Assembly: GCA_964387865.1 (NCBI GenBank) | Contig: CAYLXC010000001.1 | Coordinates: 50,597-114,596, forward strand | Reading direction: 5' to 3' | Source of the DNA: an uncultured Gammaproteobacteria bacterium | GTDB taxonomy: Bacteria > Patescibacteriota > Microgenomatia > Daviesbacterales > UBA10151 | DNA length: 64,000 nt | Shown: one piece after another, positions 2,831-49,120 of the stretch | How positions within the stretch are numbered: the stretch's first letter is position 1 | Layout of the letters: each line of letters opens with the position of its first letter | Notes under the pieces: model-generated | What the model was told of the DNA's origin: nothing | What the model saw: only the letters and a program-made list of their open reading frames with translations | The model's database searches: none | Made by a program: the position numbers and the translations under genes

Positions 2831-4486
2831 ATGGCCAAATTAAATCAAAGAGCTGCTGCCCATATTCTTCTTCTTGTAACAGCAATAGGCATTATTGCAT
2901 TAACTCTGGTTACTAATACATTCTCTTTTAAGGACAAACTATTCTCCCAGCTTTTTCCCAAATCTAAATCATTCGCATCACAATTGTATGAATCTACTCC
3001 TCTAAATGAATTATCCATGTACCCTAAAGCAAGTAATAATATTCAGTTATTTGCCTATTTTGGGGTAAATAAATTCCAACAAAACGTTCCTCAATTCGTC
3101 AAGGATTATCTGGCAAAAGAAATGGACTTTTTTTTATTTGATTTCCAACATGATTACCCCTGCATTGATAGTGGAAATTACGATTTTCCCTGTCCAAACA
3201 ATAATTATAATTTTTCAGGGCTTTGGAATTTAACAAGCGATCTTAAAGCGATTTTACCCAACAAATTAAAAGTTATTATTCATGGCTGCGAAGCATTTGG
3301 GAATCACCCCTGGTGCCCCTCTTTTCCAATACTTACTGATAATGACATTATGCACAACAAAGATAGTTCTATTAAAAGGTATATCTTAGGTTCAAGACTT
3401 TTTAATGTAAATAATCCCACAACCAGAGATAAGATTGCTTTGTATTGGAGAGATACATTTAATACAAAAAATGTAGATGGAGTTGTTTTTGATTCATTTA
3501 ATCCTGATCAGGCAGCCTCACTTGGCAGGGGGTCCTGTTTGGATGATACTTGCGACACCACTATTAATCCTGCGTCATTTATTACTGATCGGGCCGAATT
3601 CCAAAGCTGTTTGGAAGGACCTTGCGAAACTTATGATTTTTGGACAGAAAGGATGGGAGCATTTGGAAGGGAAACTATGAATTCCTCTCCTGGAAGAGAA
3701 GTTATATATAATGGTTTCTCACTGGATCCAAATTCAAAATACGGTCCTTACAACAGTAATTTTACGGATTACTTCACAGGAGCTTTAATTGAATATCCCC
3801 AGGAAATGATATTTAGCCCGGAAAAGTTTAAAAACTACTTGGACGCCATTAATTATATTCTGAACAAAGGCAAAAAATTATTCATTATTTTTCAGCCTCA
3901 GCTATCAAGCATCCCCTCATTAAATATCAATTTGAATTTGGAAAGATTTTTCCTTGCAACTTATCTTCTGCTTCAAAAGAATTCTTATACTTTTTTTAGC
4001 TACCATCCGGGAGAACCATATAGATTGGATTCTTCGGAATGGCTTTATTTTTATAAAGACTGGAATTTGGATTTTGGTACACCTTTAGATTTCTACAGAA
4101 GTGTAAACTCGCCTGATTTATATTACCGCCAATATAGCAATGGCTATGCAGTTGTTAACTCATCAGATTTTTCTGTAAACTTTCCGTTCCCGCCGGGTGA
4201 ATGGCGTGAGTGGGATCCTTATGATAGTTCAAAAGGTGTTAGCGGATCAACAGCAATACCACCTAAAACTGGAAAATTTTTCTTTGAAGCTTCCAAGTTC
4301 CCAACTCCTTCCCCTACTCCCCCACCCAAGATAGGCGATATAAATGGGGATGGGGCTGTAAATGTAGTGGATTTCTCGATTCTATTATCTAAATGGAATA
4401 CAGCAGATATAGGTGCTGATTTAAATGGAGACGGAATAGTTAATGTAGTTGATTTCTCAATCCTTTTATCTAATTGGGGGACATAG
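2831..4486 (+). CDS. secreted/membrane-anchored protein (551 aa) with a C-terminal tandem type-I dockerin module after a Pro/Thr linker; the central domain is possibly glycoside-hydrolase-like
   Basis: N-terminal signal-anchor (MAKLNQRAAAHILLLVTAIGIIALTLV), linker PTPSPTPPPK, and two dockerin repeats GDINGDGAVNVVDFSILLSKW / DLNGDGIVNVVDFSILLSNWGT (DxNxDGxVNxxD calcium-binding pattern). Confidence 0.7.
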   Translation: MAKLNQRAAAHILLLVTAIGIIALTLVTNTFSFKDKLFSQLFPKSKSFASQLYESTPLNELSMYPKASNNIQLFAYFGVNKFQQNVPQFVKDYLAKEMDFFLFDFQHDYPCIDSGNYDFPCPNNNYNFSGLWNLTSDLKAILPNKLKVIIHGCEAFGNHPWCPSFPILTDNDIMHNKDSSIKRYILGSRLFNVNNPTTRDKIALYWRDTFNTKNVDGVVFDSFNPDQAASLGRGSCLDDTCDTTINPASFITDRAEFQSCLEGPCETYDFWTERMGAFGRETMNSSPGREVIYNGFSLDPNSKYGPYNSNFTDYFTGALIEYPQEMIFSPEKFKNYLDAINYILNKGKKLFIIFQPQLSSIPSLNINLNLERFFLATYLLLQKNSYTFFSYHPGEPYRLDSSEWLYFYKDWNLDFGTPLDFYRSVNSPDLYYRQYSNGYAVVNSSDFSVNFPFPPGEWREWDPYDSSKGVSGSTAIPPKTGKFFFEASKFPTPSPTPPPKIGDINGDGAVNVVDFSILLSKWNTADIGADLNGDGIVNVVDFSILLSNWGT

Positions 4487-4528
4487 AAAGTTGACTTTAA
4501 TCCCAACTTAGCTGTTAATTAAACTAGA

Positions 4529-6316
4529 GTGAATAAATTAAATCAGGCAGGTGCTTCTCATATACTCATTCTTGTTGCTGTTGTAGGCTTTCTCTTTTTT
4601 CTACTAATATCCAACGCTTTCGACTTTAAAGATAAACTTTTTAGCAATTTATTCCCTAAACCTCCATCACATGCAGTTTCTCCATATAAAATCGGTGCCT
4701 ATTATTTTGGTATGTGGTCATCTACAGATACTGTACCGGATCATCTGGATAATGTTGAAAGAGTTTATGGAAGACGAGATCTGTGGGGAGGAGTAAAAGA
4801 CTTTTATGGTTTAGAGCCGGGAATCCCAAAAGATACCAGAGGCTGGACCGGAGATTTTTCTCATCTCAAACCGGAAATTGGATACTATGATTACAGTATT
4901 TCTGGTCCTACTATTCTAGAACAACAAATAATTCAGGCTAAACAAAACGGGTTAAGTTTTTTTAATTTTTACTGGTATTGGGATTCCACATATAAAAAAG
5001 AATTTCTTAGCAGTGGAATAAATTCTTTCTTGCAAGCAACCAATAAAAATCAGCTGCAGTTTATGATTTCAATTGCAGCTCATCCTTGGTGTAATGGCCC
5101 TACATGCCTATCAATACCTCTTCAGGATGGAGTGCAAACTACTCAAATTATTGTGGATAAATATTTCTCTCAACCAAATTATCTTAAAACTCAAAATGGA
5201 AGACCGATTATATTTATACTTGACTCACGAGGTATGTATGGAGGAACAATACAAGATACTCAAGACTATATTTCCCTTTTAAAACTAACTTCACAAAACA
5301 GATTAGGTGTTGAACCAATTGTGCTGATTTCCGTTGAAAATCCAGATGCCAGATCAATTACTAATACTGATGGATATTCTTGCGTAGCCACCTATATTCA
5401 ACCTTCTGGAGCACAATCATATCAATATTATCTTGATAATTTTACAAACCATTTTGCAACTTTCACTGATAAACCGCTCATGCCATGTTTTGTGAGTAAC
5501 TTTGATGAACGTCCAAGGCAAGATATATCAATAACAGATAGGAACCAAATACGATATTTTAGTGATTTTTCAGAAACACTTTTTAGGGATGGGGTTACTC
5601 GGGTTAAACAATACATGGATTCCCAAACAAATGAACTTAGTAAGATATTAACAATTTATGCATGGAATGAATGGCATGAAGGTGGAATAATAGAGCCTAA
5701 TGTGAGAGATAAAAATAAAAGGTTAAGCATAATAGCTGAAACATTTAGCTTAACAACAAACCCTATCGGTACTTTTGATCTTGCAAACTGCTCCTTAATA
5801 GAAGGCTGGACCTGTGATGCTGATGATTATAATGCTACGTTGAATGTTCACCTTTACAAGGATGGGCCCTATGGAAGTGGGATATTCATCGCATCAACAT
5901 CTGCAAATATTACAAGGGAGCCAGCTGTTGGAAGTTCTTGTGGAGGAAATCCCAATCATGGATTTTCTTATGTAACACCACCCTCACTAATGGATAGCCA
6001 GCCGCATACAATTTATGCATATGGTATAGATATCCCTTCCGGAACTAATTCCATTCTAAATGGTAATCCTAAAACTATTCAGTGTAATCCCACTCCCTCA
6101 CCTACCCCAACCCCAAGTCCTTCCCCATCTCCTACTCCTACCCCTACTCCACCTCCTAAGACTGGGGATATTAATGGAGATGGATCCGTAAATGTAGTTG
6201 ATTTCTCGATCCTTTTATCTAAATGGAACACATCAGATTCTGCATCTGATCTAAATGGAGATGGGATAGTTAATGTAGTAGATTTTTCTATACTTCTATC
6301 TAACTGGGGGACGTAA
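4529..6316 (+). CDS. paralogous secreted protein (595 aa) with the same N-terminal anchor and C-terminal dockerin module but a different central (putative carbohydrate-active) domain
   Basis: N-terminus MNKLNQAGASHILILVAVVGFLFFLL...DFKDKLFSNLFPK is near-identical in pattern to the upstream gene. Linker PTPSPTPTPSPSPSPTPTPTPPPK. Dockerin repeats GDINGDGSVNVVDFSILLSKW / DLNGDGIVNVVDFSILLSNWGT. The last ~170 nt of each gene are nearly identical at the DNA level. Confidence 0.7.
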   Translation: MNKLNQAGASHILILVAVVGFLFFLLISNAFDFKDKLFSNLFPKPPSHAVSPYKIGAYYFGMWSSTDTVPDHLDNVERVYGRRDLWGGVKDFYGLEPGIPKDTRGWTGDFSHLKPEIGYYDYSISGPTILEQQIIQAKQNGLSFFNFYWYWDSTYKKEFLSSGINSFLQATNKNQLQFMISIAAHPWCNGPTCLSIPLQDGVQTTQIIVDKYFSQPNYLKTQNGRPIIFILDSRGMYGGTIQDTQDYISLLKLTSQNRLGVEPIVLISVENPDARSITNTDGYSCVATYIQPSGAQSYQYYLDNFTNHFATFTDKPLMPCFVSNFDERPRQDISITDRNQIRYFSDFSETLFRDGVTRVKQYMDSQTNELSKILTIYAWNEWHEGGIIEPNVRDKNKRLSIIAETFSLTTNPIGTFDLANCSLIEGWTCDADDYNATLNVHLYKDGPYGSGIFIASTSANITREPAVGSSCGGNPNHGFSYVTPPSLMDSQPHTIYAYGIDIPSGTNSILNGNPKTIQCNPTPSPTPTPSPSPSPTPTPTPPPKTGDINGDGSVNVVDFSILLSKWNTSDSASDLNGDGIVNVVDFSILLSNWGT

Positions 6317-7652
6317 GAAATTTATGTGCTTCCTTAATCCTTTTTATACTTTCCTCCTCGCCTAAAATTTTCATGCATTCAAAAAGCGGTGGGGTTACAA
6401 TCTGGCCTGAGATTGCAACCCTAATTAGTTGAAACATATCAGATGCTGACAAACCTTCTTGACTAGCCAATTCCCTGAAAGTTTTTTCAAACACCTCTGC
6501 TTTCCATGGTTTTTCCATTCTTTCCAGCTCTTCCGCAACTCTTCCAATCTTTAATCTTAAATCTTTAATCCCTGCCTTGCCGGCAGGCAGGTTTAATCTA
6601 TTAAATACCTCTATTTCATATTCCGGCTTTTCCCATAAAAAATCTGTTAATGGCACAAAATCTGATAATTTCTTTATCCTCTCCTTTATTAAAGGTATAA
6701 CTTTTCCAATCTCTTCCTCTGTTGGATGATCCAAGGCTCCCCCTGAAATATTTTTTAAATATTCTAAAATTTGAGATTTAAGATTTGAGTTTTGAGATTT
6801 CCTTATGTATTCCCCATTTAACCACTCAAGTTTTGTTACATCAAAATACGCTGATGAAGCATTCACGTCTTTAAAATCAAAAAGTTTTATCATCTCCTCT
6901 ATTTCAAAAATTTCTTTCCCTTCAGGATGAGTCCAGCCTAAAAGTGCCAAAAAATTAAGTACAGCCTCTTTTAAATACCCATCATCCCTAAACTCTAGTG
7001 TGGATTTTGCCCCATGTCTTTTGGATAACTTAGCTCTGTCAGATCCAACCAAAACAGGCATATGGGCAAATTGCGGATGAATCCACTCAAAAGTATCATA
7101 AATCATCAAATGTTTCGGGGTTGAAGAAATAAACTCATTACCCCGGATTACATGAGTAATTTCCATTAAATGATCATCCACTACATTCGCAAAATTGTAA
7201 GTCGGATACCCGTCTGATTTTAGAATCACAAAATCTTCTTGGGTATTATTAGGAAAACTAATTTTTTTATCTCCTACCAAATCTTGCCAAACAGTTTCCC
7301 CTTCCTTCTTAACCTTAAACCTTATTGCTTTTCCGTCTTTATAAGCAAACCCTTTTTCTAAAAGCTCAAAAGCATATTTTTTATAAATATCCAGTCTTTC
7401 GGATTGAATATAGGGTGCATATGGACCACCGATATCAGGCCCTTCATCATACTCTAAACCTAACCATTTTAAAGTTTGATAAATTTGCTCAACACTTTCC
7501 GCAACAAATCTTTCCCTATCCGTATCCTCAAGCCTTAATATGAATTTCCCTCCCATTTTTTTTGCAAACACAAAATCAAATAGCGCTTGCCAGGCTGTTC
7601 CAATATGTGGTGCGCCTGTTGGGGATGGCGCAAGTCTAACCCTAACTTCCAT
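6300..7652 (-). CDS. gltX: glutamate--tRNA ligase
   Basis: Class I aaRS signatures: PSPTGAPHIG (HIGH) and KLSKR (KMSKS). Typical GluRS N-terminal catalytic-domain organisation. 450 aa. The 3' end overlaps the convergent dockerin gene by 17 nt. Confidence 0.9.
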   Translation of the reverse strand: MEVRVRLAPSPTGAPHIGTAWQALFDFVFAKKMGGKFILRLEDTDRERFVAESVEQIYQTLKWLGLEYDEGPDIGGPYAPYIQSERLDIYKKYAFELLEKGFAYKDGKAIRFKVKKEGETVWQDLVGDKKISFPNNTQEDFVILKSDGYPTYNFANVVDDHLMEITHVIRGNEFISSTPKHLMIYDTFEWIHPQFAHMPVLVGSDRAKLSKRHGAKSTLEFRDDGYLKEAVLNFLALLGWTHPEGKEIFEIEEMIKLFDFKDVNASSAYFDVTKLEWLNGEYIRKSQNSNLKSQILEYLKNISGGALDHPTEEEIGKVIPLIKERIKKLSDFVPLTDFLWEKPEYEIEVFNRLNLPAGKAGIKDLRLKIGRVAEELERMEKPWKAEVFEKTFRELASQEGLSASDMFQLIRVAISGQIVTPPLFECMKILGEEESIKRIKEAHKFLTSPS

Positions 7653-7681
7653 GCACTAATTATAACAGTTATAATTGTTAT

Positions 7682-8725
7682 ATGACCTTGACCCAAACTG
7701 CCGTTCTTACCAAACAATCCATAAAACTTACAATTATCGCCTTAATTGTAATTATATTAAGTTTTATTGGCTACAAAATCTGGTATGCATATTATCTTTC
7801 AACCCTTCCTCCTGTTGAAGAAAAGCCAGACACAAAATTTGGTAAATTACCGCCTCCTAATTTTCCAAAAATTGATGTTTCATCTTCAAACTTCTCATAT
7901 AATCTGGACACAACAACAGGCTCTTTACCAAAATTAGGAGATGAAGGTTTTGAAAAAATTATCAAAGTTTACTTTGTAATAAAACCTTTAGCAAGTTTAC
8001 TTTCTTCTGAAAGAAGCCAAACCCTTGCTCAAAAGTTTGGCATTTCTACCCCTCCACAAATTATATCTGAAACAAACTATGCTTTTAGAGAAGCAGGGAA
8101 AAATCTTAATGTGGACTTGGATAGCGGAAATTTTACTTATATAAATCTAATTAGCTCACCTCCTAATGAGCAGTTGGATGATGATAATAAACTTGTAAAA
8201 GACTTTGAAAATATTTTGGCAAACTTGGGAGTTTTGAAAAACGAGCTTAGAGAAGGACGAAGTAAAGTAACACTTTTAAAAAAAGAGGGGGCAAACTATA
8301 TTCCTACTACGCTAAGAACTGAAGCTACATCAGCCCAAATATCCCTTTGGCCTAAAGATTTGGATAAAAGATCAATTTTTACTTCGGATTTCAATAAATC
8401 TTTAGTTAATGCCCAAATTTTTGACTCTTCATCTAATTTGGATAATTATTTATCAATAAACTTTACTAATTGGCCAATTGAGAAAGAAGTTTTTGCAACT
8501 TACCCTACCAAAAGCCCGGAGGATGCTTTTAATGACTTAAAAGGAGGAAAAGGAGCAATTATTTTAAAACCTGCAAAAGGAGAGGTTTCCGTCACATCCA
8601 TCTATTTAGGATATTATCTTTCAGATACTTATACTCCCTACTTACACCCCATATATATTTTCGAAGGTCCCCAATTTGTAGCATATGTTTCAGCAGTAGA
8701 TTCTAATTTTGTTGAGGCCAAATAA
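7682..8725 (+). CDS. hypothetical membrane-anchored protein (347 aa)
   Basis: N-terminal TM helix (LTIIALIVIILSFIGYKIWYAYY) followed by a soluble domain. No recognised motif. Confidence 0.5.
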   Translation: MTLTQTAVLTKQSIKLTIIALIVIILSFIGYKIWYAYYLSTLPPVEEKPDTKFGKLPPPNFPKIDVSSSNFSYNLDTTTGSLPKLGDEGFEKIIKVYFVIKPLASLLSSERSQTLAQKFGISTPPQIISETNYAFREAGKNLNVDLDSGNFTYINLISSPPNEQLDDDNKLVKDFENILANLGVLKNELREGRSKVTLLKKEGANYIPTTLRTEATSAQISLWPKDLDKRSIFTSDFNKSLVNAQIFDSSSNLDNYLSINFTNWPIEKEVFATYPTKSPEDAFNDLKGGKGAIILKPAKGEVSVTSIYLGYYLSDTYTPYLHPIYIFEGPQFVAYVSAVDSNFVEAK

Positions 8726-8726
8726 A

Positions 8727-8798
8727 GTTGACGATTTGTGTAAAATTCCCAAAACACAAATTGTCATCCTGATCCGGCGAAGCCGGAGAAGGATCTAT
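8727..8798 (+). repeat. copy of compound stem-loop repeat family A (hairpin 'atttgtg...cacaaat' + 'ttgtcatcctga' + 'tccggcgaagccgga' + 'gaaggatct')
   Basis: Shares the 'caaattgtcatcctgatccggcgaagccggagaaggatct' core with the copies at 27846-27933, 59502-59590, 60962-61036 and 62524-62632. Lies between convergent genes. Confidence 0.7.
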
Positions 8799-9716
8799 TC
8801 AATTAGGCCATTGAAAATTCGCATATGTCCAATTTATAAGGCTCGTTGTTTCACCAAACCTGTCATCAGATCCTAAAACTATTAGCAAGACTTTATGTCC
8901 CCCTCTTTCAACCAGAGTAACCAAATTTTCCTTTGCCCCCTCAGTGTAGCCGGTTTTCACACCTAAAACTCCGCTAACTTGTGACAAAAGCTTATTTAAA
9001 TTTCTAAGCTGATGCTTATACTTTTTATCCAAAGAAACAATATCCGTATCTTTTGTTGAAAATATTCTTGAAAGTTGAGAATCCTTTAAGGCCTCTTGAG
9101 TAATTTTTGATAAATCCGAAGCAGATGAATAGTGATTGGGTGAATCAAAACCAGCCGGGTTTTCAAAATGTGTATTATTTAAATTTAACTCAATCGCTTT
9201 CTTATTCATGGCAGAAACAAAACCTAAGACTCCCCCGGGATAATTTTCGGAAATTGCGTACGCAGCATCATTTCCGGAATTTAGGAGCATTCCATAAAGA
9301 AGTGATCTGAAAGTCAAATCTTCCCCGCTAAAAAGACCTACCTTTGCACCGGGAATTTTTGCTCCATCATTTACAGTCAATACTGAGTTAGGCTGAAAAT
9401 ACCCGGATGCAACCAAAGCTGTCATAATCTTTGTGGTTGAGGCAATCGGCAAGGGAATAAATGCATCTTTTTGATATAAAATTGTATCTGTTTCCAAATC
9501 CTTAACCAAAATTGACCGTGAAGTAGAGAATGGAACTTCAATATTTTTACTTATTGGCGGAATATTATATTTTTGAACTCCGGCCACCTCAGAATTGTTT
9601 TGAGGGATTTGGGATGTAACGAAAACATCTTCTGCAAATGATAATCCTAAGGGTAGTAAAGCAACAACACAGATTGCGAAAATAATTAAAGCAGCGGAGA
9701 AAAAATAATACTTCAC
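8799..9716 (-). CDS. D-alanyl-D-alanine carboxypeptidase (peptidase S11, PBP5/6-like)
   Basis: STTKIMT (SxxK), LLNSGND (SxN) and KTGYT (KTG) motifs. N-terminal signal peptide/TM. Confidence 0.8.
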   Translation of the reverse strand: MKYYFFSAALIIFAICVVALLPLGLSFAEDVFVTSQIPQNNSEVAGVQKYNIPPISKNIEVPFSTSRSILVKDLETDTILYQKDAFIPLPIASTTKIMTALVASGYFQPNSVLTVNDGAKIPGAKVGLFSGEDLTFRSLLYGMLLNSGNDAAYAISENYPGGVLGFVSAMNKKAIELNLNNTHFENPAGFDSPNHYSSASDLSKITQEALKDSQLSRIFSTKDTDIVSLDKKYKHQLRNLNKLLSQVSGVLGVKTGYTEGAKENLVTLVERGGHKVLLIVLGSDDRFGETTSLINWTYANFQWPN

Positions 9717-9726
9717 TTTTTACTTT

Positions 9727-11079
9727 TTACTTTTTACTTAATCTAACATCCACTCTTTCCATATCCCTTGGAAATAGAGAAGCTTCCCTTATATTGGCAA
9801 GATTAAGAATATGCATAGTTATTCTCTCAAGTCCAAATGAAAAACCACCTTCAGAGGGCATGCCAAATTTAAAAGCCATCAAATACATCTCAAAATTTTT
9901 TGGATCCATGCCATGAGATTTAATTGACTCAACTAGCTGGTCATAGTTATTTATTCTCTGGCTACCACTCATTATCTCCACTCCTCTGAAAAGAAGGTCA
10001 TAGCTTAAAGAATAATTAGGATCTTTTGGATCTGGCATAGTATAAAAAGGTTTTGCAGCAATTGGAAAATGAGTCACTGTGACAAAATCGCTCCTATGTT
10101 TTTCTTTTGCCCAATTACATAAATCAATCTCATCTTGTGGAGTTAAATCTTTTTCATTGCGATTATCTCTCCCGAATTCTTTGAAGATTAATTCCTGCGC
10201 TTCCCTCAGTGTAAGCCTTGGGATCTTACCGTAGGCAACGGCATCCACACCAAACTCATCCAGTATATCTTTACATTTTTCTTCTGCATGTTTAATAGTT
10301 TCAATAGCAACTTTTTCCAAAAGGTCCAAAAGGTCTTCAAATTCAACAAATCCAATCTCACAATCCATTTGGGTGATTTCTGCCAAATGTCTGGTTGTAA
10401 CTGAAGGTTCTGCTCTGTAAGCCTTAGTCACTGTAAATACACGTTCAAAAACAGGAACTAGCATTTGTTTATAAAGCTGGGGACTTTGAGTAAGAAAAGC
10501 TTTGTGTTCAAAATAATCTATTTTAAAAACTTCTGCTCCTCCTTCTGTTGCAGATGCAGCAATTGTGGGAACAACAATTTCAGTACATCTTAATTCTCTT
10601 GCAGATTTTCTAAAACCATCCAGAATTGCCTCTTGAACCTTAAAAATTGCTTTAACCTTTGGATGCCTTAAAGTTAAAGATCTAAAATCCAAAAGGGTTG
10701 GAAGTTGTAAATCTAAATTCTTTCCTCCCATATCAAACGGTAATTCTGATGCTTTTGATAAAACTTGAATACTTTCTGCAGAAATTTCAATTTCACCGGT
10801 TGGGATTTTTTTGTTTACCATATGTGGAGGCCTTTTATTAACCTTTCCTGTTACGGAAACAACATCTTGGGGATGTAGATCCCTCACCTCGAAGGTGGGC
10901 TTTGACTCCTTCGAGGTGAATGTGGTCTGCTGCGATACTACAACTTGAATTAGTCCACTTCGATCCCCTATATCCAAGAACAAAATTTTCCCATGATCAC
11001 GCCTGGTTTGCACCCAGCCATTAATTTTCACATTTTCACCTATTTTGTTATTACAATCTAATATTAATGTCCTATTCAT
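9727..11079 (-). CDS. aspS: class IIb aminoacyl-tRNA synthetase, aspartate--tRNA ligase (archaeal/short type; AsnRS cannot be excluded)
   Basis: N-terminal OB anticodon-binding fold. Motif 2 FRAE...TRHLAE and motif 3 GGFSFGLERI. 450 aa. Carries a 39-nt palindromic in-frame insert (see the repeat at 10885-10923). Confidence 0.8.
   Translation of the reverse strand: MNRTLILDCNNKIGENVKINGWVQTRRDHGKILFLDIGDRSGLIQVVVSQQTTFTSKESKPTFEVRDLHPQDVVSVTGKVNKRPPHMVNKKIPTGEIEISAESIQVLSKASELPFDMGGKNLDLQLPTLLDFRSLTLRHPKVKAIFKVQEAILDGFRKSARELRCTEIVVPTIAASATEGGAEVFKIDYFEHKAFLTQSPQLYKQMLVPVFERVFTVTKAYRAEPSVTTRHLAEITQMDCEIGFVEFEDLLDLLEKVAIETIKHAEEKCKDILDEFGVDAVAYGKIPRLTLREAQELIFKEFGRDNRNEKDLTPQDEIDLCNWAKEKHRSDFVTVTHFPIAAKPFYTMPDPKDPNYSLSYDLLFRGVEIMSGSQRINNYDQLVESIKSHGMDPKNFEMYLMAFKFGMPSEGGFSFGLERITMHILNLANIREASLFPRDMERVDVRLSKK
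10885..10923. repeat. palindromic element family B ('cacctcgaagg-tgggctttgactc-cttcgaggtg') inserted in-frame in aspS
   Basis: Perfect 11-bp inverted repeat around a 13-nt loop. A near-identical copy lies in cca (15823-15861). It encodes ...TSKESKPTFEVRD... in the aspS frame. Confidence 0.75.
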
Positions 11080-11124
11080 TACTTAAAAACTAGATGAATG
11101 CATAATAGCAGTTTAAATCCAATC

Positions 11125-11153
11125 TTGACAAGGATTGAATTAGCTGATATATT
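11125..11153 (+). promoter_or_regulatory. sigma70-like promoter (TTGACA - 17 nt - TATATT)
   Basis: Consensus -35 hexamer at 11125-11130 and -10 hexamer at 11148-11153. An ATG follows 7 nt downstream. Confidence 0.5.
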
Positions 11154-11160
11154 ATCTTTT

Positions 11161-11208
11161 ATGCAAAACCTAAGAAGATATTTTAATTTCTTCTTTACCT
11201 TCGCTTAA
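11161..11208 (+). CDS. putative 15-aa Phe-rich leader peptide MQNLRRYFNFFFTFA
   Basis: Near-leaderless ORF directly after the promoter. Its stop codon sits at the base of hairpin A. The composition (FNFFFTF) resembles E. coli pheL ([15 protein letters not shown]). Confidence 0.35.
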   Translation: MQNLRRYFNFFFTFA

Positions 11209-11277
11209 ACGGAGGTTGGTTTTTGTGTAAAAAAACCAACATAACTTAACCTCCGTTTATAAGTGGAGGTTTTTTTT
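11207..11277 (+). promoter_or_regulatory. attenuator-like leader unit 1: hairpin A (aaacggaggtt...aacctccgttt) and alternative terminator B (acctcc..ggaggt + T8) whose 3' arm is the SD for the ATG at 11278
   Basis: Direct reading: 'ggaggt' (11211-11216), 'acctcc' (11249-11254), 'ggaggt' (11265-11270), 'tttttttt', then ATG. Confidence 0.5.
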
Positions 11278-11520
11278 ATGGAGAAAAGAAAGGAAGGTGA
11301 AAAAATGGTAGAAAGAATAATTGTAAAACCCGAATATCCCGAACAAAAAGGTATTACTCGGGCTTTAGCTGATCTTGATCGAATTCAAGTAGATATTAGA
11401 GGAAGAATGATTGGTTCAGAGCCAGTCGCACAGACAGGATCATCAAGTTTACAAACTAGAGTAAAAATATCACTAGAATATCCAGATCCTACTGAACGAA
11501 AACCATATTTCGTTCGCTAA
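11278..11520 (+). CDS. hypothetical small protein (80 aa from ATG 11278; table ORF starts at GTG 11263)
   Basis: SD GGAGGT lies 8 nt upstream of ATG 11278. The product has no recognised motif. Confidence 0.45.
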   Translation: MEKRKEGEKMVERIIVKPEYPEQKGITRALADLDRIQVDIRGRMIGSEPVAQTGSSSLQTRVKISLEYPDPTERKPYFVR

Positions 11521-11522
11521 AC

Positions 11523-11552
11523 TTGACAAAATACATAAACTGCCCTTATAAT
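11523..11552 (+). promoter_or_regulatory. sigma70-like promoter (TTGACA - 18 nt - TATAAT)
   Basis: Consensus hexamers at 11523-11528 and 11547-11552. An ATG follows 11 nt downstream. Confidence 0.5.
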
Positions 11553-11563
11553 TTAAATAGTCT

Positions 11564-11668
11564 ATGTCAAAAGTTGAAGTAATTGATTTAAGAAAAGTAG
11601 AAGTTATTCTTGGCCTCCTTATTTTAGTGCTCGTTACGGGCACTTTTTTGGGAGGTCTTTTTAGGTAA
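11564..11668 (+). CDS. putative 34-aa Leu/Val/Ile-rich leader peptide MSKVEVIDLRKVEVILGLLILVLVTGTFLGGLFR
   Basis: It starts right after the promoter. Its last codons (gggaggtcttttt) form the 5' arm of hairpin A of unit 2. Branched-chain residues (L8, V6, I3) are enriched, as in leu/ilv leader peptides. Confidence 0.35.
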   Translation: MSKVEVIDLRKVEVILGLLILVLVTGTFLGGLFR

Positions 11669-11720
11669 AAAATAACCTAAAAAAGAAAGTAATCAGACCT
11701 CCCTAACGGGAGGTTTTTTA
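11650..11720 (+). promoter_or_regulatory. attenuator-like leader unit 2: hairpin A (gggaggtct...agacctccc) and terminator B (cctccc-taac-gggagg + T6) that contains the SD of the next gene
   Basis: Direct reading of the sequence. Terminator B is a 6-bp GC stem with a 4-nt loop and a U6 tract, immediately followed by start codon TTG 11721. Confidence 0.5.
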
Positions 11721-12011
11721 TTGGGAAAAAATATGAGTGAAAGATTTAGACCAGATACAATACATAGAAGGGCCTATAAAATAGCCTCAGAAACCTTTGC
11801 GAATGTCGAAAGTTTAACTGATGAACAAGTAGGAGTAGTAGAAAATGACAGAAGAGGTAGAAGAAGAATGATCCATTCATTACAGCAAAGTCTGAAGGAA
11901 ACTTCAGGAGAAGAACGAAGACGGTTACTTGAGCAGTTACATGATCTGGAATCGCATCAATTCGCATCAAGATATGCAATCGAAAAACGTTCAGGTAAAA
12001 GATTTTTTTAA
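11721..12011 (+). CDS. hypothetical small basic protein (96 aa, Arg-rich)
   Basis: The ORF follows SD GGGAGGT at optimal spacing from start TTG 11721. No recognised domain. Confidence 0.45.
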   Translation: MGKNMSERFRPDTIHRRAYKIASETFANVESLTDEQVGVVENDRRGRRRMIHSLQQSLKETSGEERRRLLEQLHDLESHQFASRYAIEKRSGKRFF

Positions 12012-12041
12012 TATAACGAAAGAAAGGGGGTGTTTAAATTT

Positions 12042-12248
12042 ATGACAGAACGTGGAGAAATACCTGTTGAACAGCGTGGAATCTTGAATTCAACCATGGA
12101 GCCAGGAGATGTGGCATTCGGGACATTGGATATATACTACAATCCCGGCCCTGACAAAAGCGTGCCAAATTCAGAAGATGGAAATGGAACTGTACGTGAT
12201 CCTGAACCAGTAGAAGTAGTCACAGATATACGCGGTGTACCTTTTTAA
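12042..12248 (+). CDS. hypothetical small protein (68 aa from ATG 12042; table ORF starts at 12030)
   Basis: SD AAGGGGGTG lies 7 nt upstream of ATG 12042. Confidence 0.35.
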   Translation: MTERGEIPVEQRGILNSTMEPGDVAFGTLDIYYNPGPDKSVPNSEDGNGTVRDPEPVEVVTDIRGVPF

Positions 12249-12291
12249 TTCTAAAAACGACCTATTGCACAGAAAAATCAATTACGGTAGC

Positions 12292-12378
12292 ATGTATTCC
12301 ATATGCATACTAAAGCTGAAATTATTATTGGAATTATTATTACTTCTAAAAAGGGAGGTTGTTTGGCGTAAGTCTTAA
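12292..12378 (+). CDS. putative 28-aa Leu-rich leader peptide MYSICILKLKLLLELLLLLKREVVWRKS
   Basis: Ten Leu including LLLELLLLL. The ORF ends inside the 5' arm of hairpin A of unit 3. It is preceded by a weak TTGCAC-17-TAGCAT promoter-like pair. Confidence 0.4.
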   Translation: MYSICILKLKLLLELLLLLKREVVWRKS

Positions 12379-12431
12379 AAAAAGATTCCGCAACAAACCT
12401 CCTGAAAGGGAGGTTTTTTAATGAGAAAAAT
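12348..12431 (+). promoter_or_regulatory. attenuator-like leader unit 3 upstream of the cimA/leuA-family gene: hairpin A (gggaggttgtttggcg...cgcaacaaacctcc), terminator B (acctcc-tgaaag-ggaggt + T6), and an 8-codon uORF (ATG 12421, MRKIWQKL) overlapping the cimA start
   Basis: Direct reading of the sequence. SD GGGAGGT (12408-12414) is optimally spaced for ATG 12421. The cimA ATG at 12432 is in another frame. Confidence 0.5.
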
Positions 12432-14003
12432 ATGGCAGAAACTTTAAAAATAGTACCTTACGATACAACGTTAAGAGATGGTGCTCAGGATGCAAGGGCT
12501 AGACTCTCTGTAAAGAAGAAACTAAAAATTGCTCAAAGATTGGACCAACTTAGGTTCCCCTTTATAGAAGGTGGTTGGCCTGGGGCAAATGAAATTGATA
12601 CAGAATTTTTTAGACAAGCAAGAGGTATGTTTGAGAATAGCCAGTTTGTTGCGTTCGGAATGACCGCAAGAATCGGTGGCAGACCTGAAAACGACGATGG
12701 GCTAAATGCACTTCTTGAGTCTGGAACAAATTTCATCACTATTTTCGGAAAAACATGGGAGACTCATGTCCAAAATGCGTTAAGAGCACCCAGCTATAAG
12801 AACTTGGATACTATTTTCGAAAGTGTTCGCTTTCTAAAAGCTGAAGGACGAGAGGTAATATTTGATGCAGAACACTGGTTTAGTGGTTATAGAGAAAATC
12901 CAGATTATGCTCTTGAATGTTTAGAAGCAGCAGAAGCTGCTGGTGCCAGAACACTAGTTCTTTGTGATACCAATGGAGGCAGTAATCATAGATTTGTAGA
13001 AAGTGGGGTTAAAGCAGCGAGAAGTAGATTTCCAGATACAGAGTTGGGGATCCATGTACATAACGACAGTGCTCTAGCGGTTATTAACACAATCGTTGCA
13101 GTAGAAGCAGGAGTAATACAGGTTCAAGGGACTATTAACGGCTCCGGAGAAAGGGCAGGAAATGTGGATCTGTGCCAAGTATTGCCAACAGCAGAATTTA
13201 AATATGAAATACCTAGCGGTATAGATTTGAGAACTTTAACTAAAGCATCTCGCTTTGTTGAAAGTATAAACGAGATACCTGTACCGGATAATACTCCATA
13301 TGTTGGCAGAAATGCGTTTGCCCACAAGGGAGGAGTACATCAATCCGGCCAGAGGCGAGCTGATAAAAGGCAAGCGAGTGATGAGGCGGCATATGAACAT
13401 ATAGAACCAGCTTTAGTAGGAAATAAGAGAATTTATATTATGTCAGAACAAGGCGGGTCGACAAATATAGAGATTATGGCAGAAAAGCATGGATTTCAAG
13501 TTGACAGAACTGATCCATTATTTACCTTACTCGTTGAAAAAATGAAGCAAAAAGGTATTTTTGGAGATGCACAGGAGTATCTCCTGCTCTATGAAACTTT
13601 AACAAATGAACAAATACCTTTTGATGTTTTAGAAAGCCGTGTTGTAGACGAACGGGGTAGAGATCCTGAAGCTAGCATTAGAGTGCGGGTAAATGGCGAC
13701 ACTCTACATGAAGCTAATTTAGGCAAAGGTCTTATAAATGCTTTTGATAATGCTTTAAGAAAAGCTTTATTACAAAAGTATAAGGAAGTTGCAGACATAA
13801 CACTTGTTCCAGGAAGTTATAGAGTTACACTTCCCATGGGGGATAGTGATTCAGCTGCTGAAGTGGAAGTATACGCTGAGTTTGCCGCAGATGGCCAACA
13901 ATGGAGTTCACGTGTTCGCGGAACGGATCAACAACGTGCCGGAGAAGATACTTTTATCCAGGCTTACCAATATTACATTTTAAGAAGGCGTTCAGGTTTC
14001 TAA
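12432..14003 (+). CDS. cimA: (R)-citramalate synthase / 2-isopropylmalate synthase family protein (DRE-TIM metallolyase with C-terminal LeuA-dimer regulatory domain)
   Basis: N-terminal DTTLRDGAQ hallmark, HxH metal site (IHVHND), 523 aa with a C-terminal regulatory domain typical of CimA/LeuA. Composition is GC-richer than the flanking genes. Confidence 0.8.
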   Translation: MAETLKIVPYDTTLRDGAQDARARLSVKKKLKIAQRLDQLRFPFIEGGWPGANEIDTEFFRQARGMFENSQFVAFGMTARIGGRPENDDGLNALLESGTNFITIFGKTWETHVQNALRAPSYKNLDTIFESVRFLKAEGREVIFDAEHWFSGYRENPDYALECLEAAEAAGARTLVLCDTNGGSNHRFVESGVKAARSRFPDTELGIHVHNDSALAVINTIVAVEAGVIQVQGTINGSGERAGNVDLCQVLPTAEFKYEIPSGIDLRTLTKASRFVESINEIPVPDNTPYVGRNAFAHKGGVHQSGQRRADKRQASDEAAYEHIEPALVGNKRIYIMSEQGGSTNIEIMAEKHGFQVDRTDPLFTLLVEKMKQKGIFGDAQEYLLLYETLTNEQIPFDVLESRVVDERGRDPEASIRVRVNGDTLHEANLGKGLINAFDNALRKALLQKYKEVADITLVPGSYRVTLPMGDSDSAAEVEVYAEFAADGQQWSSRVRGTDQQRAGEDTFIQAYQYYILRRRSGF

Positions 14004-15574
14004 ATCCTAATATCTTTCACCTTAAGCTGTAATTTTTCAAAGCCATTAAAATCATCCAGCTCTAGATTATATGCAATATCTATTTGCCGCCCGTTCTGCA
14101 GCATATTTTCCAGCTCCCCCATGCCAAAGGCGATTGTATCCAGTCCAGAGGTCTTAAATTTTAGATGTTTTCCCTGCCCTACTGTCCTTAAATCCGAAAT
14201 TTGCATCCCGTATGTTGCAAATACAGGTCTTGGATTTCCAAAACCGTGAGGCTCAAACTTTTTTAATTCTTTAACCAAATCCAATTTTAATTTTTCATAG
14301 TCAATTTCCGCATCTATATTTAACACCTTTTCATTCTCTTCCAATTCCAACTTAACTTCCTCCATTCTTTTTTTAAAAATATTTATATGTTTAGTTAAAA
14401 TTGAAAAACCTGCTGCACCCGGATGACCCCCAACATCAACCAAGATATCCGCGTGTTTTCTTATAAGCTCTACTATATTTATTCCATTAATTGACCTTGC
14501 TGACCCTTTTGAAATACTCTCTCCAACAGAAATTGCAATTGCGGGACGATAAAATTCTTCTGTAATCCTTCCGGCAACAAGTCCGATTATCCCTGGTGAC
14601 CAGCTTTTGCTGTATAGAACATGAATCAAGTTCTCCTGAACAATTAACTTTTTTGCCTCCTCTAATGCATTAATTGTCATTTGTTGCCTGGTAGTATTTG
14701 TGTCAGAAAGCAATTTGGAAAGTTTTCTTGCTTTTACTGGATCTTTTGTGCAAAGAAGTCTTAAAGAATCTATTGCATGCTCAAGCCTTCCCATGGCATT
14801 TATTCTTGGCCCCAGAATATGACCTATTTCATATGATGAGATATTGCCAAAACTAAGTCCTGACTCATTCATTAAAGATAAAAGTCCAATATTTGTAGTT
14901 TTATTTAAAATTCTTAACCCCTCCACCGTAAACGCTCTACCCAGACTAACAAGGGGTAATAAATCACAAACAGTTGCTATTGCTGCAAATTGTAATAATT
15001 CATTTGCCAAATCTTTTTTAATAAGTCCACGGATTAAACACCATCCAACAGCTGCCCCGCACATTTTTGTGGAATGCACTATTGCAAATGAATCCGGCTT
15101 TTCATCAAGTGGAATATGATGATCGGTTATTATTAAATCCAACCCCAATTCTTTTGCATATTTCGCCTGCTCTATAGCAGTTATTCCATTATCTACAGTA
15201 ATCACAACAGTAGCTCCGGAATCTCTGGCAAACTCCAAACCCAATCTTGACAACCCATATCCTTCTTTTTCCCTATGAGGAATATAGGGCAATACTTTTG
15301 CGCCTATTGATGTTAAAGCTTTATACAAAATTGCACATCCGCAAATCCCGTCAACATCATAATCCCCAAAAACTATAATCTGTTCATTATTTTCTATAGC
15401 TTCCAGGATTCTTTTTTGTCCCTTTTCAATACCGGGTATTTCTAGATCCTTATCATAATCAGAAAGCTTTGGATGAAGAAATTGATCCTTTTCTATATCA
15501 GTTTTTATACCGCGGTTTATTAGAAGCTGCTCAGCTAAATCATCGCTTTTCTTTGGTAATACTTTCCATTTCAT
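14000..15574 (-). CDS. recJ: single-stranded-DNA-specific exonuclease RecJ (DHH/DHHA1)
   Basis: DHH-family motifs (DYDVDG, ITVDNG, IITDHH) and a C-terminal DHHA1 region with a GG motif. Confidence 0.85.
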   Translation of the reverse strand: MKWKVLPKKSDDLAEQLLINRGIKTDIEKDQFLHPKLSDYDKDLEIPGIEKGQKRILEAIENNEQIIVFGDYDVDGICGCAILYKALTSIGAKVLPYIPHREKEGYGLSRLGLEFARDSGATVVITVDNGITAIEQAKYAKELGLDLIITDHHIPLDEKPDSFAIVHSTKMCGAAVGWCLIRGLIKKDLANELLQFAAIATVCDLLPLVSLGRAFTVEGLRILNKTTNIGLLSLMNESGLSFGNISSYEIGHILGPRINAMGRLEHAIDSLRLLCTKDPVKARKLSKLLSDTNTTRQQMTINALEEAKKLIVQENLIHVLYSKSWSPGIIGLVAGRITEEFYRPAIAISVGESISKGSARSINGINIVELIRKHADILVDVGGHPGAAGFSILTKHINIFKKRMEEVKLELEENEKVLNIDAEIDYEKLKLDLVKELKKFEPHGFGNPRPVFATYGMQISDLRTVGQGKHLKFKTSGLDTIAFGMGELENMLQNGRQIDIAYNLELDDFNGFEKLQLKVKDIRI

Positions 15575-26151: not shown

Positions 26152-26192
26152 CAGAAAAGGCAGGAATTTTTGGGGCAGAAATATTTTTTGTG

Positions 26193-26494
26193 CCTAGGAA
26201 GATAGTAAGCCAGATTCTGTTTCAAGATGATAATTTATCTAATGCTCCTGATTTCGAAAATCGAGCGAGCAGCTCTTTCGGTTCTAGGATTGCAGCGGGG
26301 AGGATTGCCCGTTTCACTCCCACACCAGATGGTGCGGGATTCGTCACTGTTGCTCTAACTAGTGATTACTCATGCCGATTTACATCGACCACCCTGCTCT
26401 ACGCTGTCTGGACTTTCCTCCACGTTCATGTAAACTACGTTCGTGTAAACCGAATCGTAGTAAACTGAACGTGGTAATCATCCTTCTTCCTAGG
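26193..26494 (-). ncRNA. rnpB: RNase P RNA (bacterial type, reduced)
   Basis: The minus strand contains the P4 signature GGAGGAAAGTCC...AGGGTGG and the 3' P4 strand ACAGAATCTGGCTTAC. P1 is closed by 'cctaggaaga'/'tcttcctagg'. It lies in a 360-nt gene-free gap. The overlapping plus-strand ORF 26124-26468 is spurious. Confidence 0.75.
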
Positions 26495-40985: not shown

Positions 40986-41501
40986 CTAAATTAATGGTAT
41001 GGGGTAGAGAGGAGGTATCCTCAATTTAATCTTTCTCAGCTCGTCATACCTTTGATGCTCGCCTGCTAATCCAAAATATTCAATAAATTTGTTTCCTATC
41101 TTAAAATCTGCTGTATAAATACCTTCAGGATATAAAACAGCTCTTTCATGCTCAATTTCTTTTTCAAATAAATAATCATCAATTATCTTTTCAGCTATAG
41201 AGTCACAAATGTGACCATCAGTCGCCAAACATTTATCAGCAAACATAATCGGATTGGGTTTATAACCTGCTGCTCTTACCGCATTATTCCAGTTACCAAA
41301 CCGATTTCTGGCAGCATGATAATGGTTGAATTCTCTTTTAAGAGGAATTCGTCCGTGTTCAGCATAGAACTTTTTAATCTGATCAAGAATTTCCTTTTCA
41401 TTTATGGATTGATGTTCTGACCTACACTTTACTGAGCAATAAATTCTGTAGTTAAAAATTCTCTTACCACAGAAAGAACAAATGATCCAACTCTTTGCCA
41501 T
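40986..41501 (-). CDS. zinc-ribbon + HNH-repeat (homing-endonuclease-associated repeat) protein with C-terminal nuclease-like region
   Basis: N-terminal CSFCGK...CSVKC, the repeat signature GRIPLKREF...ARNRFGNWNNAVRAAGY, and a C-terminal D/E/K-rich segment (YTADFKIGNKFIEYFG). Confidence 0.45.
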   Translation of the reverse strand: MAKSWIICSFCGKRIFNYRIYCSVKCRSEHQSINEKEILDQIKKFYAEHGRIPLKREFNHYHAARNRFGNWNNAVRAAGYKPNPIMFADKCLATDGHICDSIAEKIIDDYLFEKEIEHERAVLYPEGIYTADFKIGNKFIEYFGLAGEHQRYDELRKIKLRIPPLYPIPLI

Positions 41502-41569: not shown

Positions 41570-41641
41570 TCGGAGATAAGGGAATTGGACCCTTTGCCTC
41601 TCGGACCCCATCCGAGCGTTCTACCGATGAACTAATCTCCG
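41570..41641 (-). tRNA. tRNA-Pro (anticodon GGG)
   Basis: Minus-strand read CGGAGAU-UA-GUUC/AUCGGUA/GAAC-G-CUCGG/AUGGGGU/CCGAG-AGGCA-AAGGG/UCCAAUU/CCCUU-AUCUCCG-A. All four stems pair and the anticodon is GGG. Confidence 0.8.
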
Positions 41642-48944: not shown

Positions 48945-49120
48945 AAAAAAACCTCCCTTTTGGGAGGCTTCTGTGAATTTATTAAAATCTTCTTAGATTA
49001 AGACTTATTTACCACAGGAATAAACCTCCCACTTGAGAGGTACCAATAAGCACACGAAAAGTTGTCATTTAAAATTTTCATACTTTAATCATTGTAACAT
49101 AAAGAAAATTAACTTGTCAA
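48945..49120 (-). promoter_or_regulatory. leader with promoter (TTGACA-18-TACAAT, plus-strand coordinates 49091-49120), 27-aa leader ORF (48998-49081), hairpin A and terminator B (gcctccc-aaaa-gggaggt + U7) whose 3' arm is the SD
   Basis: Read from the minus strand. It has the same architecture as the three units at 11.1-12.4 kb. Leader peptide: MKILNDNFSCAYWYLSSGRFIPVVNKS. Confidence 0.45.

Follow-up and report, generated by a model that had tools for sequence, protein, structure and literature searches.

A predicted isoleucine-codon attenuator ahead of a citramalate-synthase-type gene in a Patescibacteria genome

The stretch of DNA analyzed here, 64,000 nucleotides (nt) of contig CAYLXC010000001.1 and hereafter called the window, carries a plus-strand segment at 12265-12431 that directly precedes a citramalate-synthase-type gene, cimA. 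On computational evidence, we consider it likely that this segment is a ribosome-mediated attenuator built on isoleucine (Ile) codons, which would make cimA respond to charged tRNA-Ile. Computation from the DNA identified the open reading frames (ORFs) and the enzyme family, showed the Ile run to be conserved, and gave the alternative pairings with their stabilities. Together these results provide an ORF with a codon run, conservation of that run, a terminator, a stabler antiterminator that shares a strand with it and, in a model, selection between the two by ribosome position. Leader-peptide attenuation is a textbook mechanism in Proteobacteria and is also known in Actinobacteria and some Firmicutes. 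Literature searches returned no report of it for the Candidate Phyla Radiation (CPR)/Patescibacteria or for cimA. What is of interest here is not the mechanism, which is known, but the phylum, the solitary cimA, and the family's proposed control of small proteins and a transporter. Coordinates of all features are collected in Table 1.

The relatives used for comparison were gathered by homologue search and exact-protein look-ups. A homologue search with CimA gave Candidatus Daviesbacteria, in the CPR/Patescibacteria group of Microgenomates, as the closest named loci. Some 35 proteins with at least 46% identity form the clade to which the window CimA belongs, and the only ones among them that bear a name are Candidatus Daviesbacteria; outside this clade identity drops to about 43%, among assorted bacteria. 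It is through these named relatives (55-59% CimA identity) and shared synteny, thus indirectly, that we place the window among the reduced-genome, Daviesbacteria-like CPR bacteria. Scans with CimA protein patterns yielded a single close genome locus (L001) and, in metagenomes, no close locus. The cimA comparison set consists of the window and seven distinct relatives (L001, L013, L014/15, L016/17, L019, L021 and L022) at 49-61% protein identity.

The first-pass annotation described the product of the downstream gene as a 523-residue synthase of the CimA/LeuA family with a DTTLRDGAQ hallmark and a LeuA-dimer-type C terminus, and translation and Pfam confirm this. The motif occupies residues 11-19, and the Pfam domains are HMGL-like (10-276), HCS_D2 (291-361) and LeuA_dimer (383-515). 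TIGR00977, the Geobacter-type citramalate synthase, scores about twice as many bits as any other family, and the protein shares its domain order, LeuA_dimer included; the match runs from residues 7-492 to model positions 2-493 of 526. The best LeuA model, the LeuA subfamily NF002085, reaches 231 bits. Identity as LeuA proper was considered and rejected, with scores of 183.7 on TIGR00973 (cutoff 598.7) and 202.6 on NF002086 (cutoff 532); on the latter model, true LeuA genes from relatives reach 470-550. The best sequence match in the PDB is a homocitrate synthase (119.8 bits), and there is no close solved structure. By its family matches, the window enzyme appears to be of the citramalate synthase type and not of the LeuA type. 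Citramalate synthase opens the pyruvate-to-2-oxobutanoate route to isoleucine, so an Ile-sensing switch in front of it would close a loop of end-product control in which sensor and enzyme match. In L016 and L022, cimA is directly followed by ileS (7699-10524 and 6399-9305, respectively; TIGR00392, above cutoff). The gene is solitary within the CPR clade. Among homologues sampled beyond that clade, the closest (43% identity) is part of a leuC-leuD-x-cimA-leuB arrangement.

The same annotation had seen an attenuator in front of the synthase and had assigned it a 28-residue Leu-rich leader. The attenuator survives our analysis; leucine as the sensed amino acid does not, because the Ile frame is conserved and the Leu frame is not. 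The Leu-rich ORF is present, with 10 Leu in 12 codons. A functional role for it is contradicted by the relatives, where the frame has stops or lacks an in-frame ATG in 7 of 7 cases and is open in the window alone; what is conserved in its place is an overlapping Ile-rich ORF of 22 codons, 12303-12371. Six of seven consecutive codons in this ORF are Ile, for which random expectation (at least six of seven) is about 2e-6 per 7-codon stretch, and just one further short ORF of the window attains five of seven, antisense within the gene at 4529-6316. An Ile run stands at the equivalent place in all eight diverged cimA loci, that is, in every cimA gene of the clade with enough upstream DNA to show a leader. 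The leader N termini are variable and the loci sit in different gene neighborhoods; a TAA or TAG at the position of the leader stop is invariant in the eight sequences and is in frame with the leader in seven.

A leucine-sensing leader at 12292-12378 would use the same nucleotides and the same structural logic as the Ile leader, and LeuA-family enzymes do feed leucine synthesis. Against it, besides the broken frame, is the fact that an Ile run of the form (ATT)n necessarily gives (TTA)n, and with it a run of Leu codons, when the frame moves on by one base. Moreover, Leu-rich short ORFs arise often by chance in this AT-rich window: 26 small ORFs, some of them nested, have at least five identical residues in seven, mostly Leu. 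The ATG of the Leu-rich ORF (12292) falls inside the putative -10 hexamer TAGCAT, the enzyme is of the CimA type, and the genuine Leu leaders of this family, described below, are different and precede leuA. We regard a leucine leader as scarcely credible. Judged from the aligned sequences, the sensed amino acid would be isoleucine and the functional frame 12303-12371. The locus is a cautionary case of how AT-rich DNA lets an (ATT)n Ile run be read as an (TTA)n Leu run.

Beyond the codon run, the RNA can be divided into four regions. Region 1 is a weak partner of region 2; region 2, which contains the leader stop codon, can pair with region 3 as an antiterminator; and the last 8 nt of region 3 are also the 5' arm of an intrinsic terminator, whose 3' arm (region 4) contains a GGAGG Shine-Dalgarno (SD) sequence. 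The 2:3 duplex has a computed free energy of -20.5 kcal/mol versus -11.1 for the terminator, with a z score of -3.8 against dinucleotide shuffles. This architecture recurs in a family of 19 units from the window and its relatives. Every unit combines a terminator (-6 to -15 kcal/mol) with a 2:3 duplex that competes with it (-12.5 to -24.8 kcal/mol); the duplex z averages -3.2 (-2.2 to -7.0 for the Ile units). Within the window, the pattern CCTCC-N(2-14)-GGAGGTTTT occurs four times against 0.00 expected, and GGAGGT-N(20-50)-ACCTCC three times against 0.04 expected. The full layout GGAGGT ... ACCTCC ... GGAGGTTTTTT, with no occurrence expected, is found at four sites: U1 (11.2 kb), U2 (11.7 kb), U3 (12.4 kb; the Ile unit before cimA) and U4 (49.0 kb). 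Folding in all four is much stronger than in shuffled sequences (z -3.4 to -6.3).

Covariation was assessed on the 1:2 plus 3:4 structure. A first covariance model, built on the RNAalifold consensus, kept 3 base pairs, yet it recovered all units and a new one in L001; a second, with the 1:2 plus 3:4 structure made explicit, served for counting pairs. Applied to the model-based alignment, which covers 18 units, this structure has 81% of its cells paired, versus 50-69% when it is slid. The covariation score is 0.308 versus 0.230 for shuffles, a value reached by 0 of 500, and in seven pairs both partners have changed. The most informative unit is that of L019, where CCUCC/GGAGG has given way to CUAGCC/GGCUAG throughout the four regions with all three pairings retained. 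An ordinary terminator of the upstream small-ORF operon, with no regulation and a fortuitous Ile ORF, would fit the position of the unit between two transcription units, where a terminator is expected, and would fit its weak local promoter. Such a terminator needs no conserved competitor helix stronger than itself, and it would not account for an Ile run kept in eight diverged loci with different neighbors. We give this explanation hardly any weight.

How the position of a ribosome would bear on the choice of structure was modeled by masking the RNA to 13 nt past each A-site codon and computing the probability of the terminator helix at equilibrium. As a positive control, Escherichia coli pheL gave a terminator probability of 1.0, then 0.0-0.1 over the Phe codons, then 0.9-1.0. 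For the Ile unit of the window the probability is 0.00-0.25 as long as the A site is on an Ile codon; from the codon after the run through to the stop it is 0.91-0.95. The same dip is found in L019, L013, L016, L014 and L001 and is weaker in L022, which makes six to seven of the eight Ile units. Family units with Leu, Phe, aromatic or Trp leaders dip exactly where their own codon runs lie.

These computations lead to a scheme in which the start of transcription, leader translation, in vivo termination and read-through, and enzyme specificity are inferred. Transcription would start a few nt before ATG 12303, and the 22-codon leader would be translated from a leaderless or nearly leaderless RNA. 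With Ile-tRNA plentiful, the ribosome would reach the stop codon (12369-12371) and cover region 2, leaving region 3 to pair with region 4 in the terminator (12396-12419), and transcription would stop before cimA. With Ile-tRNA scarce, the ribosome would stall on the ATT run (12321-12341) and region 2 would be free to pair with region 3; this duplex (about -20 kcal/mol, versus -11 for the terminator) would block the terminator, and RNA polymerase would read into cimA. The same switch would free the GGAGG of region 4 which, with a start codon 7 nt downstream, probably loads ribosomes that initiate at cimA.

That start codon opens an 8-codon ORF noted at first pass as lying at SD distance and overlapping the cimA start, an observation that translation confirms and that has counterparts across the family: an ATG, GTG or TTG stands 7-9 nt past the region 4 GGAGG in 15 of 15 units of one alignment (A2). 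It is absent after the U-tract in the aromatic-unit relatives L023 and L026. This codon is the gene's own start in L001 cimA and in U4, and is in frame with the gene in U1 and U2. In relatives it mostly opens a 3-7-codon ORF (MEKI or MGKI, then stop) that ends in ATGA on the main start, reading ATG GAG AAA ATA TGA in L013 and L014 and GTG GAG AAA ATA TGA in L021. MRKIWQKL in the window corresponds to this element, its TGA having become TGG. Translational coupling of the mini-ORF to cimA is plausible on this pattern; the GGAG inside the mini-ORFs could equally be the gene's own ribosome-binding site.

The conserved start codon and the ATGA overlaps in L013, L014 and L021 also speak for a mainly translational switch, in which the 3:4 hairpin hides the GGAGG, Ile-dependent refolding opens it, and termination is minor or absent. 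A U-tract directly after the hairpin is, however, invariant across units (15 of 15 in alignment A2), and in L019 region 4 has become GGCUAG, without an SD sequence, with hairpin and U-tract retained. We think it unlikely that translation is the main level of control. Since transcriptional and translational control can coexist, the translational explanation complements attenuation more than it competes with it.

The putative promoter of the Ile unit is of the sigma-70 type with a 17-nt spacer. A match of at least 9/12 to this promoter type is found in 17 of the 19 family units, and the end of the best-match -10 lies 4-12 nt ahead of the leader ATG in every one of the 19, with no SD sequence between the two. 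A -10 so close to the ATG, with no intervening SD, suggests a leader RNA that is leaderless or nearly so, and the Ile leader is probably translated from such an RNA. Leader peptides of Actinobacteria are often translated from leaderless RNAs. Leaderless starts may be common in the present lineage as well. In L022, the 31-nt gap before ileS resembles a promoter with -35 and -10 elements whose end is 7 nt upstream of the ATG.

Several observations weigh against the attenuator as proposed. The closest relative, L012 (89% CimA identity), has no recognizable unit in the 87 nt available upstream, where the sequence is different; this may be a real loss or a contig or assembly artifact. The promoter of the Ile unit is weak, its automated best match of 8/12 being the lowest of the family bar one, and the unit may be fed mostly by read-through from U2, in which case ATG 12303 would be an internal start without an SD sequence. 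Taken by itself, the 2:3 core has no significant column-wise covariation (its score is reached by 25 of 500 shuffles). Indels put the units out of step and the core shows little variation; for this duplex we used per-sequence energies with shuffle controls. In the ribosome scan, L021 has no dip. At equilibrium the free window RNA favors the antiterminator (terminator probability 0.00), and region 1 is weak; termination would then rest entirely on a ribosome covering region 2, unlike in the textbook trp case. As to the enzyme, its TIGR00977 score (445.9 bits, E 1.5e-133) is 4 bits short of the curated cutoff of 450, and no leuBCD or ilv genes, which would supply the pathway for the loop, lie within the 64-kb window.

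The other units of the window carry leaders of different composition: Phe-rich in U1, Leu/branched-chain in U2 and aromatic-rich in U4. Among relatives, a unit at 3680 in L001 closely resembles U2 and likewise precedes two small ORFs, and U4-type leaders read MKNINCFRRFDFPYILLKGEVFSVV and MNNNCFRRFDFNYTLLKGEEFFVA. The most Leu-rich leaders (LLGLLLLALLLG) precede leuA in L001 and L013. The L013 product scores 549.6 bits on NF002086, above cutoff, and that of L001, a form without the regulatory domain, 469.8 bits; leuA is absent from the window. Upstream of trpS in L020 (1793-3194; TIGR00233, 297.8 bits) is a Trp-Trp leader, MDVRIFAHWWYRNN, with a terminator. We tentatively suggest that it does for a tRNA synthetase gene, by way of a leader peptide, what a T-box would do; the caution reflects the 225 nt and possible second promoter that intervene, and a weak 2:3 duplex. 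The ORF after U1 has no family match and is not a Phe biosynthesis gene. ORF2, after U2, belongs to a tiny lineage-specific family (one word-search match; six representatives by full HMMER search of 1.84 billion proteins); that it might be a decayed leuA was tried by tblastn and rejected, with no similarity to LeuA loci. Neither ORF1 nor ORF3 matches a Pfam or NCBIfam family, and tblastn of the related loci gave nothing for either. The 162-residue ORF after U4 is followed by a gene for a major facilitator superfamily (MFS) transporter, and this may be an aromatic-amino-acid-responsive transporter operon.

Since Ile, Leu, Phe and aromatic units share one scaffold, as a common trans-acting factor predicts, and since regions 2 and 4 are SD-like, the GGGAGG/CCUCC elements might be read by an RNA-binding protein, or region 2 by the 16S rRNA anti-SD, with the small ORFs incidental. 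Such a factor leaves unexplained the conserved codon runs matched to their genes (Ile with cimA, Leu with leuA) and the coincidence of the antitermination zone with those runs; moreover, L019 has swapped the whole motif and kept the pairings alone. We hold it to be very unlikely. The family may represent a lineage-wide amino-acid-starvation regulon: one paralogous, probably leaderless attenuator, re-targeted by swapping its codon run (Ile, Leu/branched-chain, Phe, aromatic and possibly Trp), controlling cimA, leuA, the MFS transporter, small lineage-specific proteins and possibly a tRNA synthetase. We put this forward tentatively, as a reading a little short of an even prospect.

The nearest described system is the pheL-pheA attenuator of E. 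coli (Rfam RF01859, Phe_leader). It has the same four-region logic (CCUUC, GGGAGG, CCUCCC, and a G-rich arm with U-tract) and identical behavior in the ribosome scan, and the U1 leader has the 15-residue length and the ending of E. coli pheL. U1, U2 and 12302-12422 match Phe_leader over its full length at 29.3, 27.7 and 28.6 bits, below the gathering threshold of 55. DNA alignments of U1-U4 and the L014 Phe unit with the pheL attenuator give z scores of 5-9 against shuffles. Unlike pheL-pheA, the window unit is proposed to sense Ile and precedes cimA, and the CPR leaders have no SD sequence and start 4-12 nt after the -10. The likeness could reflect shared ancestry or a strongly constrained design reached by convergence.

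The enterobacterial ilvGMEDA, ilvBN, thr and leu attenuators have mixed (multivalent) Ile/Val/Leu leaders with their own ribosome-binding sites and regulate operons of the threonine deaminase route. What they share with the window unit is a run of branched-chain codons in a short leader, an antiterminator and a terminator that exclude each other, and a biosynthetic gene under the control of its end product. They differ in that the window unit has a near-pure Ile run before a solitary citramalate synthase gene, and in that the window units of different specificity are recognizable sequence paralogues. T-boxes likewise sense tRNA aminoacylation and switch between terminator and antiterminator on amino acid and synthetase genes; they are 200-300 nt long, bind uncharged tRNA directly and need no translation. 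No T-box match was found in Rfam up to E = 10 in 10500-14500, and none at gathering level in the window or 13 related loci. T-box, riboswitch and PyrR explanations were set aside, their Rfam matches being at chance level only; apart from the sub-threshold Phe_leader matches, no RNA family described in Rfam accounts for the leader region. Ribosome-mediated attenuation of branched-chain amino acid genes is also documented for Corynebacterium ilvBNC and leuA (PMC1262725, PMC10272879, PMC11857589), a Leu-rich attenuator peptide for Staphylococcus aureus ilv-leu (PMC5794164) and ilv leader attenuation for Listeria (PMC5864092). These belong to other phyla and have no detectable sequence relation to the window units, and none is reported upstream of cimA.

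The first-pass annotation had further taken 11.1-14.0 kb for a GC-rich, possibly horizontally acquired block. Neither part of this proposal holds. GC content is 35.2% in 11100-12431 versus 35.6% for the window; cimA alone is higher, at 40.6% (third of 52 genes, z 1.5). The excess in cimA comes from codon positions 1 and 2 (GC1 is 55%, like that of recA), and its GC3 is 26.1% versus a mean of 26.3% (rank 26 of 52); with average GC3 and high GC1 and GC2, the excess is an effect of amino acid composition. In the tetranucleotide comparison, the raw distance of cimA is unremarkable (z 0.11), although its length-corrected residual ranks third of 52. Besides the unremarkable GC3 and raw tetranucleotide distance, synteny argues against transfer: the gene order aspS, small ORFs, cimA, recJ, cca is the same in L014 despite 55% CimA identity. 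Most genes of the window are on the minus strand, and GC skew, which tracks the coding strand, is for the most part strongly negative (cumulative -21) and flips to positive over the plus-strand block at 11-14 kb; this flip may be what looked like a compositional shift.

Table 1. Features of the window and leader peptides of related cimA loci (listed peptides are each followed by a stop codon)
Feature	Position	Strand	Remarks
U1	11125-11277	+	Promoter 11125-11153, near-consensus; terminator 11248-11277
U1 Phe-rich leader, 15 aa, MQNLRRYFNFFFTFA	11161-11208	+	
ORF after U1, 80 aa	11278-11520	+	
U2	11523-11719	+	Promoter 11523-11552, 12/12 consensus; terminator 11696-11719
U2 Leu/Ile/Val-rich leader, 34 aa, MSKVEVIDLRKVEVILGLLILVLVTGTFLGGLFR	11564-11668	+	
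Small ORFs after U2	11733-12011 and 12042-12248	+	
Putative sigma-70-type promoter of Ile unit	12265-12293	+	-35 TTGCAC 12265-12270; 17-nt spacer; -10 TAGCAT 12288-12293
Leu-rich ORF of first-pass annotation, 28 aa, MYSICILKLKLLLELLLLLKREVVWRKS	12292-12378	+	Frame shadow of Ile run
Ile leader peptide ORF, 22 aa, MHTKAEIIIGIIITSKKGGCLA	12303-12371	+	Translation; orthologous Ile-run leaders
Regulatory codon run, 6 Ile in 7 codons	12321-12341	+	ATT ATT ATT GGA ATT ATT ATT
Region 1, ACTTCT	12342-12347	+	Weak partner of region 2
Region 2, AGGGAGGTTGTTTGGCGTAAGTCTTA	12352-12377	+	Antiterminator 5' strand; leader stop codon 12369-12371 inside
Region 3, AAGATTCCGCAACAAACCTCCT	12382-12403	+	Antiterminator 3' strand; last 8 nt are terminator 5' arm
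Intrinsic terminator, AACCTCCT-GAAA-GGGAGGTT	12396-12415	+	T6 to 12419; -11.1 kcal/mol
Post-terminator mini-ORF, MRKIWQKL	12421-12447	+	Start 7 nt after region 4 GGAGG; overlaps cimA start
cimA-like gene, DRE-TIM enzyme, 523 aa	12432-14003	+	Begins MAETLKIVPYDTTLRDGAQ
U4	48945-49120	-	Promoter at 49120; terminator 48969-48945
U4 aromatic-rich leader, MKILNDNFSCAYWYLSSGRFIPVVNKS	49081-48998	-	
ORF after U4, 162 aa	48944-48456	-	No Pfam match
MFS transporter after the 162-aa ORF	48456-47164	-	
RNase P RNA, class A	26190-26493	-	117 bits
Two tRNA genes	2281-2351 and 41570-41641	-	
Leader peptide, L001, MSKQRAQIIIEIIIASPKGGLLR			
Leader peptide, L013, MSKQVGQIIIAIIASPKGGLLR			
Leader peptide, L014, MKIARQIFVIIIDHPLGRIG			
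Leader peptide, L016, MNIQNSISIIIAIITSRKGGFFA			
Leader peptide, L019, MGSLALRIKIHTIIISR			
Leader peptide, L021, MDFRSNIIAEIIITPKGVSLA			
Leader peptide, L022, MNAQRIEIIIEIITSKTGGFFA			

Some further observations concern the surroundings of the units. Small proteins of 60-70 residues rich in Gly, Pro, Asp and Asn are encoded repeatedly just upstream of attenuator units (L001 4035-4247 and 5635-5820, L013 1-151, window 12042-12248) and share, by eye, the motifs MTER... and FPGV..EEW.Y...GVNG.G. In L013 (2113-5847) a Leu leader heads leuA, a GCS2-family ligase, an MR_MLE enolase-superfamily member (best NCBIfam match, o-succinylbenzoate synthase) and an M20 deacylase of the ArgE/DapE type, and this group is followed by the Ile unit and cimA. 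The arrangement hints at peptide or amino acid salvage under the same control. Elsewhere in the window are two large proteins with weak dockerin matches, one of which also has glycosyl-hydrolase/transferase domains (2831-6316, plus strand), and an HNH homing-endonuclease-repeat protein that adjoins recA (40986-41501, minus strand). Relatives carry aromatic-pathway genes near their cimA loci, which suggests that genomes of this lineage have lost less than is typical of CPR.

To our knowledge, gene regulation in CPR bacteria is almost unknown, and these organisms are assumed to live off the amino acids of others. A conserved Ile switch before cimA implies that the charging of tRNA-Ile is monitored and answered by synthesis of an isoleucine precursor, and it supplies a functional prediction for an uncharacterized clade of CimA-type enzymes. 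If the proposed regulon is real, its small proteins would be induced by starvation, for instance for scavenging or host interaction. More generally, the codon run of each paralogous leader would label the amino acid to which its downstream gene answers, unknown genes included. Such labeling is transferable and would offer a rare handle on uncultivated organisms.

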